Of a stretch of DNA of 64,000 bases, positions 4,695-46,401 are shown piece by piece. This stretch comes from Octopus vulgaris (taxonomy: Eukaryota). A program made the translations under genes and the position numbers. Each line of letters opens with the position of its first letter. Position 1 is the stretch's first letter. The stretch covers positions 99,324,001 to 99,388,000 of the forward strand of contig OX597819.1 in assembly GCA_951406725.2 (NCBI GenBank), written 5' to 3'. The notes below the pieces were generated by a model that ran no database searches, was not told the DNA's origin, and saw nothing but the letters and a program-made list of their open reading frames with translations.

Positions 4695-5970
4695 CGAGGG
4701 GCGTTCAATAAGTAATGCCTCTGACCCACTTCCCATAGCAGTAGAGCAACGAAACTTGGCACAGTTATTGGTCTTTTCCTACATAGGAACCACCCAGAGT
4801 TACGCATTTCTCCCATTGTGTGATGCAGCTCTGGAGACCGTTTTTGTAGAAGACCCCAGCTTGGTCCTCCAACCTGAACGTGACTTCAGAAATCAAGGCT
4901 GCATCATCTGGGAAACGCTTTCCTTTAAAAAACAACTTCATGACTGGGAAGAGGTGAAAATCAGAGGGTGCAAGGTCAGGAAAGTAGGGGGATGGGGATG
5001 AGTTCATAGCCATACGCCTGTGCTTCTGATCTGGCGACAAGCGAGTTGTGGACCGGAGCGTTGTCCTGCAGGAGGAGGATGCCTTTGCTGATCTTGCCCC
5101 GCCTCTTGATTTTGATAACTTCTCTTAATTTCTTCAAAAGTGAAGCATAATAGGCTCCTGCAATTGTGGTACCCTTTGCCTGGAAATCTGTCATCACTAC
5201 TCCGTCCTGGTCCCAGAAGACTGTGAGCATGACCTTGCCAGCGGAGGGCTGCACCCTTGCCTTCTTTGGAGGGGGTGAGTCACGGTGCTTCCACTGCATT
5301 GACTGGGCTTTGGTCTCTGGATCATCGTGATGGACCCAGGTTTCATCCTGTGTAATCAGTCTTTTGAAAAATGTTGACTTATCTTCTTGGCACATCTCCA
5401 AATTCACCCTCGAGCACTCGACGCGTTCTTGCTTCTGGAAAGGCGTGAGCAACCTGGGAATCTATCTAGCAGACACCTTTTGCATATGCAAATGGTCATG
5501 AATGATAGTTTCCACAGACCCGGTGCTAATCTTGACCTCATGGGCTATTTGGCGAATAATTATGCGTCGATCTTCCAAAATGGCAGCCTCAACTTGACGG
5601 ACAGATGCCTCATCAATGGCAGAAGGGGCGACCAGATCTGGGAGCTGTTTCCACAGAGTTCCGACCATGTTTGAATTCACGATGCCAGCGTTTTACAAGG
5701 TCATATGATGGGGCATCATCACCATAAGTTACTTTCATTTCATCAAAAGTCTCCCGTGGTGTGCGTCCTTTCAAATACAAAAACCGGATCACTGCTCGAC
5801 ACTCAACAGGCTCCATTTCACACTTGACTCGGTTCAAACACCTGTAAATCAGAAACCACAATTAATTCAGAATTATAATTATAGAGATATAAATGATTGC
5901 ACATGCAAAATTTCAGCTAGATCAAACAACTGCAAGTGGGTCAGGGGCATTACTTATTGAACGTCCCTCG
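4695..5970 (-). mobile_element. Full-length (1276 bp) mariner transposon with an inactivated transposase
   Basis: TIRs CGAGGG(G/A)CGTTCAATAAGTAATGCC(T/C)CTGACCCACTT; TA duplications at 4693-4694 and 5971-5972. Confidence 0.95.
4765..5816 (-). pseudogene. Mariner D,D34D transposase pseudogene
   Basis: MEPVECRAVIRFL...RSGRP; SAR*IPR (W to stop); ITQDETWV; LLQDNAPVH; PYFPDLAPSDFHLF; two frameshifts and one nonsense codon. Confidence 0.92.
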
Positions 5971-6817
5971 TATATGTGTTTGTAAGTCCTGGTGTTTTTG
6001 TTATGTATTTGTCTGAATATTTTTTTATCATGCCTAATGCACCTACTATGATAGGAATTGTTTCTGTTTTTAGATTCCACATTCTGGTTACCTCTATTCC
6101 CAGGTCTTTGTATTTTGAGAGTTTCTCCATTTCTTTTAGAGACACGTTTTCATCAGCCGGTATTGATACATCAATTAGAAAGCATTTTTTTTCTTCGTGA
6201 TCTTTGACAACTATATCTGGTCTGTTGGCCTTAATTTCTCTATCTGTGTGTATCGGCATATCCCAGAGTATGGTTGCTTTCTCGTTTTCTGTGACATTTT
6301 CTGGTGTGTGCCTATACCATCTTTTTTCTGTTGTTATTCCATAATGTTGGTATAGCTTCCAATGTATGTAAGTTCCAACTCTGTCATGTCTATGAATATA
6401 TTCCTTCTTAGCCAGGACTGGGCAGCTAGAGATAATATGATTTATTGTTTCTTGTCCATCTCCACATATTCTGCAGTTACTTGTTATATTTCTTTTCATT
6501 ACATGTTTTTGGTAATTTCTGGTGGGGAGGCTTTGGTCTTGTGCTGCAATTAAAAATCCCTCTGTTTCTGCTTTGAGTCCTGAGCTTCTCAACCATTGCT
6601 GGGATTTTTCTTTGTCTATTTCTATTGCGTTTAGTTTAGTCCAGTATTTACCATGAAGGGGCTTTTCTTGCGATCGTTTTATCATGGTTCGTTGCTGTTC
6701 TATTTTTAGTTTGGATTTCATTTGTTTTATAGCTTTTCTTCTTCTTCTTCTTCTTCTTCTTCTTCTTCTTCTTCTTCTTCTTCTTCTTCTTCTTCTTCTT
6801 CTTCTTCTTCTTCTTCA

Positions 6818-30790: not shown

Positions 30791-31346
30791 AAGTGACGGC
30801 ATGTGACTGATAGCATTTGTAGAAAATATAAGAATGAACTTTGGTCAATACTGTACATTTGTATGAGATCTATGTTATACATTACAAAAATTACTTGTTG
30901 ATTATTTTATCTCACGTAATTCACCCACTCTGAATAAAGAACAAAATAATAATATTCTAGAGTCATTAGCAGAAATGAAGGATATACTGTATAATGTAAC
31001 GTGAGATAAGCTATGACAGAAAAGGCGGGATGCTTATGGTTAGATTATTTTAAAACATATCGCAGATAAATTTAGGACTGACAAGGGGTTAAATAATGAT
31101 AACCTCCTGCCCACAAAAAATGCCCTCTCTTTTACTCTTTTACTTGTTTCAGTCATTTGACTGCGGCCATGCTAGAGCACTGCCTTTAATCGAGCAACTC
31201 GACCTCGGGACTTATTCTTTTGTAAGCCCAGCACTTATTCTATCGGTCTCTATTTGCCGAACCGCTAAGTAACGGGGACATAGCCACACCAGCATCGGTT
31301 GTCAAGCAATGCTAGAGGGACAAACACAGACACACAAACACACACA

Positions 31347-31403
<57 letters not shown>

Positions 31404-31522
31404 CAATCAAGGAACGGCCATAATAGGCCATTCACCCACTAGAAATAACAGCCAAAGCTTCAACCGCAAAATAACATTAATTCCGCAAACCAGGAGAAAA
31501 TTAAAAAAACATTTACCCTGTA

Positions 31523-31629
31523 ATTTCTTATACGATGCACCGTTTCATCTATTGTTTAATGGTAAACTAACCTGATTAAATTAAATCAAGCCAATCTTCC
31601 ATAGGCCCTTAGATTCGTCAGTAAGAAAT
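31523..31629 (-). ncRNA. Type I hammerhead ribozyme, copy 1
   Basis: Minus strand ATTTCTTA-CTGACGA-ATCTA...TAGAT-GAAA-CGGTGCATCG-TA-TAAGAAAT. Confidence 0.85.
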
Positions 31630-32012
31630 AGCCAGATCGGAACAGATATTTTCACGAGGCACTTCTGTCCCTGCCTCGGCAATATCTGACCTAAAATTTT
31701 CAAATCATCGCACTCGCGCCAAATTTATCGGCAGCAAATAAATATAAGCCGCCGATTCCATTACGGAATCAACCAGAAAATTCATAATTAATCAATATAG
31801 GGTGGCAAAAAAAATTTTGTAGAATTTTTTTGCCACCAGCGGCCTAGTGGGAAAAAATTAAATAGTCATAGACCATTTATAAGTTCAACATCACAATCAA
31901 GGAACGGCCATAATAGGCCATTCACCCACTAGAAATAACAGCCAAAGCTTCAACCGCAAAATAACATTAATTCCGCAAACCAGGAGAAAATTAAAAAAAC
32001 ATTTACCCTGTA

Positions 32013-32119
32013 ATTTCTTATACGATGCACCGTTTCATCTATTGTTTAATGGTAAACTAACCTGATTAAATTAAATCAAGCCAATCTTCCATAGGCCCTT
32101 AGATTCGTCAGTAAGAAAT
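32013..32119 (-). ncRNA. Type I hammerhead ribozyme, copy 2
   Basis: Identical to copy 1, 490 bp away. Confidence 0.85.
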
Positions 32120-32892
32120 AGCCAGATCGGAACAGATATTTTCACGAGGCACTTCTGTCCCTGCCTCGGCAATATCTGACCTAAAATTTTCAAATCATCG
32201 CACTCGCGCCAAATTTATCGGCAGCAAATAAATATAAGCCGCCGATTCCATTACGGAATCAACCAGAAAATTCATAATTAATCAATATAGGGTGGCAAAA
32301 AAATTTTGTAGAATTTTTTTGCCACCAGCGGCCTAGTGGGAAAAAATTAAATAGTCATAGACCATTTATAAGTTCAACATCACAATCAAGGAACGACCAT
32401 AATAGGCCATTCACCCACTAGAAATAACAGCCAAAGCTTCAACCGCAAAATAACATTAATTCCGCAAACCAGGAGAAAATTAAAAAAACATTTACCCTGT
32501 AATTTCTTATACGATGCACCGTTTCATCTATTGTTTAATGGTAAACTAACCTGGTTAATGTTATTTTGCGGTTGAAGCTTTGGCTGTTATTTCTAGTGGG
32601 TGAATGGCCTATTATGGCCGTTCCTTGATTGTGATGTTGAACTTATAAATGGTCTATGACTATTTAATTTTTTCCCACTAGGCGCTGGTGGCAAAAAAAT
32701 TCTACAAAATTTTTTTGCCACCTATATTGATTAATTATGAATTTTCTGGTTAATTCCGTAATGGAATCGGCGGCTTATATTTATTTGCTGCCGATAAATT
32801 TGGCGCGAGTGCGATGATTTGAAAATTTTAGGTCAGATATTGCCGAGGCAGGGACAGAAGTGCCTCGTGAAAATATCTGTTCCGATCTGGCT

Positions 32893-32999
32893 ATTTCTTA
32901 CTGACGAATCTATCGGCCTATGGAAGATTGGCTTGATTTAATTTAATCAGGTTAGTTTACCATTAAACAATAGATGAAACGGTGCATCGTATAAGAAAT
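32893..32999 (+). ncRNA. Type I hammerhead ribozyme, copy 3; predicted cleavage after GUA at 32991
   Basis: Stem I ATTTCTTA/TAAGAAAT; core CTGACGA 32901-32907; stem II ATCTAT/ATAGAT; GAAA 32976-32979; stem III ACGGT-GC-ATCGT. Confidence 0.88.
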
Positions 33000-33382
33000 T
33001 ACAGGGTAAATGTTTTTTTAATTTTCTCCTGGTTTGCGGAATTAATGTTATTTTGCGGTTGAAGCTTTGGCTGTTATTTCTAGTGGGTGAATGGCCTATT
33101 ATGGCCGTTCCTTGATTGTGATGTTGAACTTATAAATGGTCTATGACTATTTAATTTTTCCCACTAGGCCGCTGGTGGCAAAAAAATTCTACAAAATTTT
33201 TTTGCCACCCTATATTGATTAATTATGAATTTTCTGGTTGATTCCGTAATGGAATCTGCGGCTTATATTTATTTGCTGCCGATAAATTTGGCGCGAGTGC
33301 GATGATTTGAAAATTTTAGGTCAGATATTGCCGAGGCAGGGACAGAAGTGCCTCGTGAAAATATCTGTTCCGATCTGGCTGT

Positions 33383-33487
33383 TTTCTTACTGACGAATCT
33401 ATCGGCCTATGGAAGATTGGCTTGATTTAATTTAATCAGGTTGGTTTACCATTAAACAATAGATGAAACGGTGCATCGTATAAGAAA
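33383..33487 (+). ncRNA. Type I hammerhead ribozyme, copy 4; predicted cleavage after 33480
   Basis: CTGACGA 33390-33396; GAAA 33465-33468; stem I TTTCTTA/TAAGAAA. Confidence 0.85.
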
Positions 33488-35001
33488 TTACAGGGTAAAT
33501 GTTTTTTTAATTTTCTCCTGGTTTGCGGAATTAATGTTATTTTGCGGTTGAAGCTTTGGCTGTTATTTCTAGTGGGTGAATGGCCTATTATGGCCGTTCC
33601 TTGATTGTGATGTTGAACTTATAAATGGTCTATGACTATTTAATTTTTTCCTACTAGGCCGCTGGTGGCAAAAAAATTCTACAAAATTTTTTTTTGCCAC
33701 CCTATATTGATTAATTATATATATATACATATATACGACGGTCTTCTTTCAGTTTCCGTCTACCAAATCCACTCACAAGACCTTGGTCGACCCGAGACTA
33801 TAGTAGAAGACACTTGTCCCAGGTGCCACGCAGTGGGATTGAACCCGGAACCATGTGGTTGGTAAACAAGCTACTTACCACACAGCCACTCCTGCGCCTA
33901 CCCGTATATAATTTTGGCAGAAGGGCTGCAATTTTGAAGGGATTTCGACGTCGATTACTTCGATCACAGTATTTAATCTATTTTGGATTTTTCGACACTT
34001 AAAATACGTAAGGCAACATCAAGCACAACTAAACTTTTTGTCCGGCTCGGTCTAACATATAATGAGTGGGCGGTTTCAATTTAAAGTACTGTGTGAAGAT
34101 TTAAAATCTGTGACATATATTTGGGTGTGTCATTTACCCCTCGTCCATGTTCATATTAATAAAATGCTGAACTCTGACTGCACAGGTCGCATTATTTCGA
34201 ACAGTTAACGCTGAATATAATAACTATACTGCGTAGATAGTTTATGCGTGACAAACATACGCACCTTGCCCTTTGTGACGTATGCATGCGCACACGCGCA
34301 CACAGCACATACACATAAGTGTATCTATGTAGATGTGTATACATACATAAACATGCTCACACATAAGTATAAGCATTAAGCGCAAAAGTTGCGAAACAAA
34401 AACAACAACAACACAATTTGACGCACAGAAAATTTTTAAAAAAATGACAAGATATCTTTTTAACAAATCGTGCATTCGTTTTTCTTCCGAAAGATAGGAC
34501 AGGCAGAGAGAATAAAACGAGGAGGGAAACGGGGAAATTGAAACGCAAATATATCCAGTGGTCACAGTATGGTGAAAAATATGAAGATACACATACACAC
34601 ACACAAAACACACGCGCACATTTACATATGCATGAATTTATAGATAGAGAAACTCATTGACATATAGATATGTTTCTTTATTAGCCACACAGGGCTGCAC
34701 ACAGACGGGGCAAATTACAAGGTAGAGCTTTTCTTTTTGGGGATAAAAAAAGGGGGTTTGGTTTTCGATCAAAAGGGATCGTAAAAGGAAAGAAAGAGGA
34801 AAGCAAAAAAAAAAAAAAAAGAAAGGTGGGGGAATAAAAGGAAAAAGAAAATATCGATCAATAGGGATCGTTATCACAGAAATGTCAATATAAAGTGTAA
34901 AGGGGAGGACAGGTGAGGTTTGACATATAGATAACTCTTTCGACAGATAGATACAACAGCAAAGAAATACTCTTTAGTAATGAAAACTGGCCTCTGAGAA
35001 G

Positions 35002-36643: not shown

Positions 36644-36783
36644 CAAATAATAGGAATGACCGATAGGTGGATACCTAATATGCTAGAGAAAGACCCCATA
36701 TGGTCTGACCACCAAGAAAAATAGTTCTCAAGAAATTTCGGCAAATGCCAGGACGTAAAGCGAGCAAGACAAATAAAAAGATA

Positions 36784-36832
36784 CAAAGCCTTGTGAGTGG
36801 ATTTGATAAACGGAAACTGAAAGAAGCCTGTC

Positions 36833-36871
<39 letters not shown>

Positions 36872-37262
36872 TGTGTGTCTCTATTTGTACCCCCAACATC
36901 GCTTGACTACCGATGTTGTCGTGTTTACGTTGCCGTAACTTAGCGGTTCGGCAAGAGTCCGATAAAATAAGTACTAGGCTTACAAAGAATAAGTCCTGGG
37001 GTCGACTTCTTCGACTAAAGGTGGTGCTCCAGCATAGCCGCAGTCAAAGACAAATAAAAGAATAAAGAATGTATATGTGTGTGTATGTGTGTGTATAGGC
37101 GCAAGCATGGCTGTGTGGTTAGCAGTTTGTTTCCCAGTCATATGGTTCCAGATTCAGTCCCACTGTGTGGCACTTTTGGCAAGTGTCCTCTACTACAGCC
37201 TCGCGTTCACCAAAACTTTGTGAGTGGACTTGGTAGACGGAAACTGAAAGAAGCCCGTTGTA
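36784..37262 (+). mobile_element. Two partial SINE family C copies
   Basis: GTGAGTGGA(T/C)TTG..ACGGAAACTGAAAGAAGCC core present twice. Confidence 0.8.
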
Positions 37263-41019: not shown

Positions 41020-41424
41020 TCTCTTTTACTCTTTTACTTGTTTCAGTCATTTGACTGCGGCCATGCTGGAGCACCGCCTTTAGTCGAGCAAATCGACCCC
41101 GGGACTTATTCTTTCTAAGCCCAGTACTTATTCTATCGGTCTCTTTTTGCCGAATCGCTAAGTGACGGGGACGTAAACACACCAGCATCGGTTGTCAAGC
41201 AATGCTAGGGGACAAACACAGACACACAAACACACATACATATATATATACATATATACGACAGGCTTCTTTCAGTTTCCGTCTACCAAATCCACTCACA
41301 AGGCATTGGTCGGCCCGGGGCTATAGCAGAAGACACTTGCCCAAGATGCCACGCAGTGGGACTGAACCCAGAACCATGAGGCTGGTTAGCAAGCTACTTA
41401 CCACACAGCCACTCCTGCGCCTAT
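41020..41424 (-). mobile_element. Full-length SINE family C (tRNA-like head, internal TA/TG microsatellite, GAGTAAAA tail)
   Basis: Minus strand TAGGCGCAGGAGTGGCTGTGTGGTAAG...GGGTTCAGTCCC A/B boxes; several copies in the window. Confidence 0.9.
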
Positions 41425-43550: not shown

Positions 43551-45708
43551 CAGTTATGCATACCACGTTCGTGTACACTTAGATATTGTTACATCTTCTG
43601 TGGTAAAGTGTCTCGAGAAGAAATTCTCCATATAGACTGTGTGTGTGAACAACCTGTTTCTGCAGATTCGCGCATAATCGGCTCCGCACGAAATTTATCC
43701 GTCGTTCATTTAAAAATTATCATTCTTCTACATAAAGGACATAAAATAAATATGGTGGCATGTACTAAACTTTGGCAAACTAGAATTAATTAGTCGAAGA
43801 TACAATAAGCAACCAAGATTAAAATAAAGATGGTGCATGGCAAAACTGCTGACACGTAAGCGCTAAAATGATTTGCATATCTGTGGTACATTTTAACAAG
43901 CCATGAATGTTTTATTGTTTAATATTTTGTCGTTTACTACTTACTCAAAATAGCTTACATTTATGATAGTAGGCCTGTGGACTCTTAGCCCAGAAGCGTG
44001 GATGCAGCGGACATATACCAGGGAATCAAAATACAAAACATGAAAATAACACGCAATTTGGAATTAAAAAATACAATGAAAAGTCAAAGAAAATAGGACA
44101 GAGATACATAAGAACAAGCAACCACTGGGGGCATTTTGACAAAATGAAATTATCTGGGACGGATATTTCTGGTAATTTCAACAACACTGGCAGTTTTGCC
44201 AGTATCTGTAATAAGACGAATGTGATCTATGGGCTTCTGAGAAAGAAAATAAATGCAGTAAAGATATACTATGTGGAGTGGTATTCTCTTATAGAAAGGA
44301 TACATCGAGAAATGAACAAGAAAATAGCAACATACGGCAGGACATTACCTCTGTCGCATTTGAAATAGCCCTTTCCGATGAAAGAGCATTTGAAGTAGCT
44401 CCTTCTGGCGTGTATAGAGCAACTTCAACTTAAGTCTTTAAGACCAAGGAAGAGGTGGTATAGCATCACATGGAACTGCTACAGCATGTATAGCCTGATG
44501 TTGGTGCTGCAATAAAGTGGGATAACAGAATATAAAGGTTACTGCTAGGGGAAAATTCCTAATACTCTCTACCCTTGGTTTGTTGAGCCCTTTGCGGCAA
44601 TAAACGGGGAGCTAATGTGGTAAATAACTAGCAAAAAGTGCAATCAGGTGGCATTTGAATGGATATGCAGCTTCGTGTCAATAGATTTAGATGTGTTGAC
44701 GTCTGCGAGACTAGGCTTTCCAGGATGTATTAAGCGCCCCTTCTTGACATATATAAGTTGTACACATCTTATAAATGGCGACTTTGTTCTGGATTTCGAG
44801 ATATGGACCATCATTTTAGACACATGTAGAGGGTTTGTATGTCTGTAGTCTTGAATTGAATAGCAATTAAAATGATGACTGCGGACTAGTGTTCGTTTAA
44901 AGTTTAGTTAGTGTAGGGTAGCCAAGGTGTGTGTGACGTCTGAAACAGTCAGAGGAACGCTATAATTATGTGGGAATATATGACTGGAGTGGTCTGAGTG
45001 TTGAATATTCGCAAAATCTTCTTACACCGCTACAACTTTCTACCAAGTTCTGACATGAAAATCTGTCAGTCAAAAGGTAAAGATACGATAAAAGACTACT
45101 GGTTGGACAATAAGAACTTTTGACCGCTTACCTTGAGGGTATTTATCCCGACTGTTTGTGTTAAGAGTTCAAATACCACCATGGCTTATTTGGGTGGTAG
45201 ACTTATTTAGTCGCCCAGTTTAAGACCATCACTTGCTAACTGGAGCCCTTAGCGATGAAGTTCAATTTGTTGCAGGCGTTAAAGAGCAAGTCTATGATCT
45301 CAGTGGAGATATCTTCCACATATCACTTACAAAGGCTTTGTCAGTGATTTGGTGCACATGCCGTTTCCTTCCGACTGAAAATCAAAATTTAAAAAAAATA
45401 TATTTCTGTAACGATTCAGATTATTATTCAATTTTAACCAACTAAAGATCTACCTATCTATATGTCTTTCTGTCTATCTATTCCTATTTCTCTTATGTTA
45501 TGTTAAGTCATCCAACTTAATAAAAAAAGTACATTAAGTAATCACGTCATACTAGGGTCTATTTTATTTGCTTATTATTGCAATATTGTATACTAATACC
45601 AATTAAATGTTTCGATTTTCCATTCGCATAAAATATTTTCTAAATAGAACATATTAAGTGAAATAAATATTTTTGATTTATTTGTCATTGATTTCAACAT
45701 ATTTATAG

Positions 45709-45963
45709 CTTGGATGTTTGGCGATCCTCATATTCAAACTCTCGATGGTCTGAAATACTCCTTTAATGGTTTGGGTGAATATACCTTAATAAGAGTACAT
45801 AATAAAACCACAGGCATAAATATGCTAGAAATTCAAGCAAGGACCGCTCAAGCGAAAAATTCAAATGGTACTCTGATTAACGCCACAATATTTTCGGCTT
45901 TTGCAATGAAAGACTTCCTTACCAATGCCTCTGCACAGGTTGAACTAGCTTCTGATGAAAAGA
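45709..45963 (+). CDS. Mucin-like (MUC4/SUSD2-type) protein exon: start of the VWD domain
   Basis: AG|..WMFGDPHIQTLDGLKYSFNGLGEYTL..IQART..|GTAAGT; 255 nt, phase 1-1. Confidence 0.92.
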
Positions 45964-46401
45964 GTAAGTTTTATTACTTTGTCAAACTTGATTTCATTTT
46001 ACATGTATATTGATGAAGTTTTGTAGTGAATAAAATCTGACTCTTGTTTCATATAGCAATTTAAATTTTATGTTGTGTACTATTCTTTAATATCTATTAC
46101 AAATTTTAAGGCTGTAATCTGGTAGGATCGTTAGCACGCCGGGCAAAAAGCTTAGCGGCATTTCGTCCGTCTTTATGTTATCAGTTTCAATTCCGTCGAA
46201 TCGACTTTGTCTTTCATAATTTCAGGGGGCGATAAAAAACAATACCAGTCGAGCACTGGTTCGATGTAATCGATTTATCGTTACCTTCGAAACAGCTTGT
46301 CTTCTGCCAAAATTTGAAATGAATATTTGTTAGAGTTGTTTAGTAAATTTCCATGTTGTTTAAAAGTTCCAATATACATTTTCTATTCATTTCTGTTTCA
46401 G

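Follow-up and report, generated by a model that had tools for sequence, protein, structure and literature searches.

Metazoan non-LTR retrozymes are tandem repeats whose non-coding, GC-poor and highly folded units each carry a type I hammerhead ribozyme, and which occur as many polymorphic copies in hosts that also bear Penelope-like elements (PLEs), at least in the portions of the literature covered here (PMC7229834; bioRxiv 10.64898/2026.07.22.740005). In their proposed cycle, a multimeric transcript is cut to monomers, a host ligase closes these into circles, and the copying falls to a borrowed reverse transcriptase, for which PLEs are candidates (PMC7229834). The 2026 preprint (Li, Clavereau and Pollet) recognises a retrozyme by at least two consecutive tandem units that each hold a complete type I hammerhead, and its available text argues for a PLE origin from co-occurrence and pseudo-LTR (pLTR) homology, leaving the mechanism open; one of nine predicted Xenopus retrozyme dimers cut in vitro. 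PLEs leave marks of their own, described as an inverted, 5′-truncated copy and a (TA)n target (PMC8557442), and a purified PLE protein has been reported to cut and extend both strands at AT-rich DNA and to start internally on RNA (PMC11167929). In Octopus vulgaris, 190 Penelope-like families have been counted, 31 of them recently active, and PLEs make up 6.83% of the genome; Dong-R4, another microsatellite-associated element, is also active there, and the study makes no mention of a hammerhead or ribozyme (PMC13282606).

The window analysed here is a 64,000-nt stretch of the O. vulgaris genome (contig OX597819.1, forward strand), and all positions refer to it. It contains an insertion (31398–33718) in which a 489-nt tandem unit forms two arms, each about 2.4 units long and set head to head. 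It is probable that the type I hammerhead found in each unit of this head-to-head TA array, with its 56-nt stem II hairpin, is the likely active ribozyme of a non-LTR retrozyme, likely copied by a Penelope-like retrotransposon. The right arm (32555–33718, + strand) comprises 2.38 units and the left arm (31398–32558, − strand) 2.37, the unit length being 489–490 nt, and the arms meet at a junction (32553–32558) where they have 5 nt of microhomology in common, with a base change at 32554. The insertion carries five hammerheads, four of them full: copies R1 (32893–32999) and R2 (33383–33487) on the + strand, with predicted cuts after 32991 and 33480, copies L1 (32013–32119) and L2 (31523–31629) on the − strand, and the 3′ half of a fifth (32502–32558, −), cut off at the junction. 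Each arm thus holds two consecutive tandem units with a complete type I hammerhead. The predicted cut-to-cut monomer (32992–33480, +) is 489 nt long and 37% GC, its longest ATG frame has 28 codons and its folding z-score is −6.2.

The arms are 97–99% alike, and so the insertion is young. Both right-arm hammerheads have TC at 32913–32914 and the matching place, where both left-arm hammerheads have AG, which makes it likely that the arms came from different templates. The two left-arm copies differ by one substitution and the two right-arm copies by five, among them the family polymorphism at 32752; as a template, a single circle suits the left arm better, and the five differences argue against one circle as the template of the right arm.

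Both ends of the array run into TA repeats, an (AT)n stretch on the left (31350–31398) and a (TA)n stretch on the right (33716–33734), and beyond these lie the left half (31150–31349, +) and the right half (33735–33900, +) of a host composite repeat. Empty-site paralogs, in which the composite-repeat halves are joined by (TA)n alone, occur at 36780–37100 (−) and 41050–41400 (+). The array was therefore inserted in the (TA)n linker, and local duplication or a fold-back artefact is unlikely; a target-site duplication is unreadable within (TA)n.

The stretch 32893–32999 is a complete type I hammerhead motif. Stem I pairs 32893–32900 with 32992–32999 over 8 bp and is followed by the core C3–A9 (CUGACGA, 32901–32907, +); stem II pairs 32908–32913 with 32970–32975 around 56 nt (32914–32969); GAAA occupies 32976–32979, stem III 32979–32990, and a GUA triplet precedes the predicted cut. 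Stem I is open, stems II and III are closed, and the core-flanking bases are paired in all three stems. By the core criteria of the sections available of PMC3088659, C3 U4 G5 A6 N7 G8 A9, G12 A13 A14 A15 and U16 H17 are unchanged in all four full copies. The whole 107-nt motif has a folding z-score of −4.3, and a scan with thresholds of at least 7 bp for stem I, at least 5 for stem II and at least 3 for stem III returned four matches in the real window, all of them copies of the motif itself, whereas 100 dinucleotide shuffles gave no match. Judged from these features of its sequence, the motif is likely an active self-cleaving ribozyme.

The initial annotation had drawn stem II as ATCTAT/ATAGAT around ATGG/CCAT and a distal hairpin, and the coordinates and pairings of this arrangement were confirmed. 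The hairpin is present but had been underestimated in length, extending to 14 bp (five of them G·U) between 32925–32938 and 32945–32958. The proposed 6-bp stem II holds for five pairs; the sixth is mismatched in both left-arm copies, and 32970 is G in 83–96% of depth in the four runs described below.

Sequence variation in the wider family is consistent with this structure. The 489-nt unit is present in 20 of 21 listed runs, from eight studies and four coded organisms, and contigs from four runs, one per organism, were aligned to 32520–33060; one of these, run X1, may be the source sample. Between 584 and 14,956 contigs per run align in all four, numbers that do not give genomic copy number, and head-to-tail joints of the unit were found in each of the four. 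Forty changes at a level of at least 5% are listed for the aligned region, and 18 of these, at 17 positions, fall within the hammerhead. None of the 18 touches the 12 conserved core positions, the core being polymorphic only at N7 (32905: C, A or T), where three alleles are common in three runs and a C/T polymorphism is common in the fourth. Among the 12 changes at paired positions, seven keep the pair, two are rescued by a listed change of the partner (32896/32996 in stem I and 32912/32971 in stem II) and three break it (32956, 32975 and 32999). The common variant at 32975 would mispair 10.1–11.1 unless 32908 changes too; one loose end of run X9 carries partner changes at 32908 and 32911, and this partner for 32975 was left out of the count. 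Within the stem II extension, two G·U pairs become A-U, an A·A mismatch is closed and one pair is broken.

Core hits and pair breaks together number three, against 7.4 expected under random placement of the same changes (P 0.014), a combined measure chosen post hoc; the three separate tests give 0.09–0.10 each, and the stem II extension alone 0.25. Variants that spare the core and mostly keep the pairs lend moderate support to the hammerhead. Covariation, which had been put forward as a check, returned two rescued pairs across the runs and no two-sided change among the four window copies, and the contigs do not reveal the phase of paired changes. With C at N7, core positions 32904–32907 can also pair with the 3′ strand of stem III (32987–32990), giving an inactive fold with a local probability of about 0.5. 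In such folding models the N7 alleles may tune hammerhead activity.

Several smaller observations concern the runs. Diverged subfamilies, about 85% alike (a loose end of run X3 before 32915, record 18 of run X5 and record 29 of run X9), appear to align across the entire hammerhead with few gaps. As weak hints, a loose-end consensus of run X1 ends in TA repeats where the right arm also ends, and in one X9 contig a joint at another place in the unit changes strand. None of the runs listed as carrying the unit is an RNA run; six further runs, guessed to be RNA, contain 33–46% of the unit's words.

The motif has an unusual stem II. The 56-nt insertion (32914–32969, +) consists of an internal loop where loop 2 would be, a 4-bp helix (ATGG/CCAT) and the 14-bp hairpin. 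The 68-nt stem II domain folds with a z-score of −5.0 on the ribozyme strand, compared with −2.3 on the opposite strand, because five of the 14 distal pairs are G·U, a strand asymmetry indicating structure in the RNA rather than a palindrome in the DNA. The earlier claim of a structured long stem II insertion within a hammerhead is therefore borne out by the fold and the shuffles, and, to judge by the diverged subfamilies, the long stem II is probably an old feature of the family. A distal extension of stem I is also predicted (32886–33005, +), with a 3×2 internal loop and four more pairs. The predicted internal loops lie 8 bp into stem I and 5–6 bp into stem II, whereas the canonical lengths are given as 6 and 4 bp, with a helix II of 4 bp and a short loop (PMC4209133, as far as its text was available). 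The offset between the loops would thus be roughly kept, and the extension is best read as a loop 2 that has turned into an internal loop and is capped by a hairpin. On this model, which has about an even chance of being right, the stem II internal loop would replace loop 2 and dock on the stem I internal loop, and the long hairpin would be a passenger. A pseudoknot of just 3–4 bp can be drawn on paper between 32915–32918 and 32889–32892.

The nearest structural parallels come from plant infectious RNAs. In the CChMVd (−) hammerhead, loop 2 is likewise described as an internal loop with a capping hairpin, and its 3′ strand ends in ACA, as here; its partner is a hairpin loop 1, whereas stem I of the octopus motif would offer an internal loop (PMC2632901). 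In the sCYDV-RPV (+) hammerhead, helix II contains internal loops and its segments measure 5, 4 and 4 bp (PMC1636495, Table 1). The extensions of both are shorter than the one described here. The octopus motif, in contrast, is a genomic repeat, and the likeness is one of structure, by description. Within the running text of the open-access papers covered, no animal type I hammerhead with an equally long stem II extension was found. Nor was a docking geometry of internal loop on internal loop found in the hammerhead literature covered, as far as those texts extend.

The initial annotation had predicted that the long stem II would hide the ribozyme from standard searches, which holds for the Rfam hammerhead models: there was no match at the gathering score in the whole window, and none even at E up to 10 in the region 32800–33100. 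The miss is probably due to the stem II insertion, a cause deduced from the structure. A 20-base family motif had no match in viral contigs and none in prokaryote contigs. Metagenome matches to the core pattern with a gap of 55–80 nt, at 29 loci, were rejected as chance, as none of the 29 has stems I and II of at least 4 bp and there was no BLAST match to the unit. Searches of the open-access literature turned up no account of this 489-nt family as an octopus or cephalopod hammerhead or retrozyme.

Stem III (32979–32990, +) is self-complementary over 12 nt, with two G·U pairs. It had been described as near-palindromic and, with G·U allowed, is fully so, forming a self-duplex of 12 bp at −17.5 kcal/mol; 264 of 3539 random 3-bp stem III sequences (7.5%) are equally self-complementary, so the palindrome is suggestive and not decisive. 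The 2-nt loop originally proposed arises only if a fifth pair is forced, and the stem III open to a monomer is instead a hairpin with either four pairs around 4 nt (−0.1 kcal/mol) or three pairs around 6 nt (−0.2 kcal/mol). In the two-copy transcript 32870–33500, the inter-copy stem III and the outer hammerhead form unconstrained, with pair probabilities of 0.91–1.0, which makes dimer folding likely in the natural tandem. The double hammerhead reaches −195.6 kcal/mol against −184.5 for two monomers, a gain of 11 kcal/mol. In each of the 17 contexts that were folded, the active monomer fold exceeds the minimum by 2–7 kcal/mol, and its share is 0.0001–0.03 in a folding model that takes no account of tertiary contacts.

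These energies could be taken to mean that a single copy is inactive and that two tandem copies paired via stem III are needed, an arrangement that would also protect the monomeric circle. The self-duplex at −17.5 against the hairpin at −0.2 kcal/mol, the 11 kcal/mol advantage of the double hammerhead and the very small share of active monomer all favour such an obligate dimer, as does the palindromic stem III common among repeat-type hammerheads (PMC3088659, legend of Fig. S8). The dimer-dependent hammerheads of newt, axolotl and ASBVd likewise combine a palindromic helix III with tandem copies, but their helix III has 1–2 bp, compared with 3–4 bp and a loop of 4–6 nt here, so any dependence on dimers is likely weaker in the octopus (PMC7229834, PMC6155905, in the parts covered). 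Most invertebrate type I hammerheads are reported, in a review from the group behind PMC7229834, to cleave efficiently as monomers (PMC7761336), those of coral and mussel at about 0.8 and 0.1 per minute (PMC7229834, available text). The absence of variants at 32976–32991 in the four runs would also suit a dimer, yet it lies within chance, with 9–56% of 12–16 nt windows being variant-free, and was rejected as a sign of dimers; the frequency of equally palindromic random stems and the blindness of the model to tertiary contacts weaken the case further. Strict dependence is accordingly doubtful. The claim that the ribozyme needs two tandem copies stands insofar as such copies exist and probably fold as dimers, and goes beyond the evidence in making them a strict requirement. 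Dimer-assisted cutting through the 12-bp inter-copy stem III is somewhat more likely than not. A conserved lock between 32810–32816 and stem III in the circle was also considered and rejected, since variant 32815, at 23–82% of depth, breaks the pairing.

The unit as a whole has the sequence features of a retrozyme, being non-coding, below 50% GC, without LTR organisation, stably folded by prediction, multi-copy and inserted. A non-coding, 37% GC, folded unit fits the non-LTR retrozymes as characterised in the available text of PMC7229834, and the type I hammerhead in each unit, the many polymorphic copies and the PLE-bearing host are likewise shared with the metazoan members. At 489 nt it is longer than the 150–450 bp given in PMC7229834 and within the 51–972 bp of the 2026 preprint, as far as these texts could be consulted. 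The ribozyme, at 107 nt with its 56-nt extension, departs from the canonical helix II of 4 bp with a short loop (PMC4209133, in part), and the head-to-head insertion in (TA)n has no counterpart in the covered text of PMC7229834, where the words "inverted" and "microsatellite" do not occur. On the sense strand of the unit there are no Pol III boxes, no poly(A) signal and no long or endless reading frame; no tRNA genes were found. A bacterial promoter scan stayed at background level and has no relevance here. Two further long hairpins lie in the unit (32830–32889 and 32687–32722), the former with a cluster of 15 listed variants, and it may be a second conserved domain.

The likeness to PLE insertions lies in the anatomy of the array, in which an inverted, 5′-truncated copy stands beside a tandem in a (TA)n target with internal end points (PMC8557442, PMC11167929, both in part), and in a type I hammerhead with a palindromic helix III, as described for PLE pLTRs (PMC4209133, likewise). 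Unlike PLEs as portrayed in these texts, the octopus array has no reverse transcriptase or endonuclease frame, its hammerhead is full-size and not minimal, and its two 3′ ends lie 102 nt apart within the unit, compared with a tail of 30–40 bp in PLEs. Both array 3′ ends (31398–31411, −, and 33706–33718, +) fall 6–7 bases past a TTGATT that follows a strong hairpin. This TTGATT is a possible start signal for reverse transcription, based on two cases noticed afterwards.

A route by which such an array might have formed can be proposed from these elements. Read-through transcription of one arm would yield a multimeric RNA, which the hammerheads would cut after GUA at a spacing of 489 nt; a double hammerhead, slightly favoured, would probably do this best, with cutting by monomers still possible and a strict dimer unlikely. 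The monomers would be ligated into circles by a host ligase, by analogy with the retrozymes of coral, mussel and axolotl, for which this has been shown. A Penelope-like enzyme would then cut both (TA)n strands and, starting at each end, make cDNA of more than two units, and the two cDNAs would join head to head at the 5-nt microhomology, a final step that appears fairly probable. PLE-driven movement is likely by analogy, the PLE-type marks of a tandem, an inverted 5′-truncated copy and a microsatellite target being present at one locus.

The marks just described would also be expected if the unit were the pLTR of an autonomous PLE and the locus a truncated tandem and inverted insertion of that element, with no independent retrozyme. 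[quoted passage not shown] However, each arm holds over two complete units and nothing that separates these is coding, no PLE protein occurs among the 42 window frames scanned with Pfam, and the unit has no reverse transcriptase or GIY-YIG frame. Head-to-tail joints occur in all four runs, and the share of contigs running into unlike sequence is 0, leaving out 271 loose ends. Metazoan PLE hammerheads, moreover, are described as usually minimal and lacking helix III (PMC4209133, consulted text). A PLE pLTR is accordingly a distinctly unlikely identity for the unit.

It is less likely still, and would be surprising, that the array is the relic of a dead satellite, its hammerhead non-functional and its copies spread by DNA-level processes. 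Eight of nine tested Xenopus candidates were inactive in the portion of the 2026 preprint covered, but the octopus variation spares the core and mostly keeps the pairs, the arms are similar enough for the insertion to be young, the G·U-rich hairpin folds on one strand only, and the array is a dispersed insertion in (TA)n. An inverted array might also be produced by assembly fold-back, and no contig bridging the junction was found among the 32 listed of 22,245 pieces. The arms nevertheless have different haplotypes and end points, and the outer flanks, correctly ordered, are the left and the right half of a single composite repeat, where a fold-back would mirror the flanks; such an artefact is scarcely credible.

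A broader reading is more tentative, and on balance improbable as a whole: that a family of large hammerheads missed by covariance searches exists throughout the octopuses, in which a stem II internal loop docks on a stem I internal loop, and that the head-to-head insertions with arm-specific haplotypes are the direct imprint left by a Penelope-like enzyme as it primed each end of a cut TA repeat on two separate retrozyme RNAs. If this were true, animal hammerhead counts would be underestimated, and what moves retrozymes would be readable from genomes. The insertion anatomy, with its inverted junction, TA target and arm-specific haplotypes, is a different type of evidence for PLE mobility from that in the available text of the 2026 preprint, which argues from co-occurrence and from homology to pLTRs. 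Should the octopus motif cut, animal type I hammerheads would occur in nature over a wider range of sizes, and a family with thousands of contigs per run could be invisible to Rfam, so that surveys should allow for a long stem II. The class, the dimer folding and the long helix II each have precedents, and the surprise is moderate.

The surroundings of the array contain other repeats and a gene. Two different repeats lie tail to tail via (TA)n in at least three places (31150–31398 with 33716–33900, 36780–37100 and 41050–41400), as if one repeat targets the TA tail of the other, and both are presumably SINE-like. The exons of a mucin-4-like gene, with VWD and C8-3_MUC4 domains, extend over 35195–63881 (+), and about 1.5 kb separates the end of the array from the first exon matched (35195). 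One exon (45705–45965) is a 99% match to the O. vulgaris mucin-4-like protein, and six of 12 matches of this protein to the window are 100% identical, among the matches listed. A retroelement fragment with a zf-RVT domain lies beside a (TTC)n run at 5957–6733 (−) and is, by appearance, what we take to be an R4/Dong-type element; a broken mariner-type transposase (Pfam Transposase_1) occupies 4768–5461 (−).
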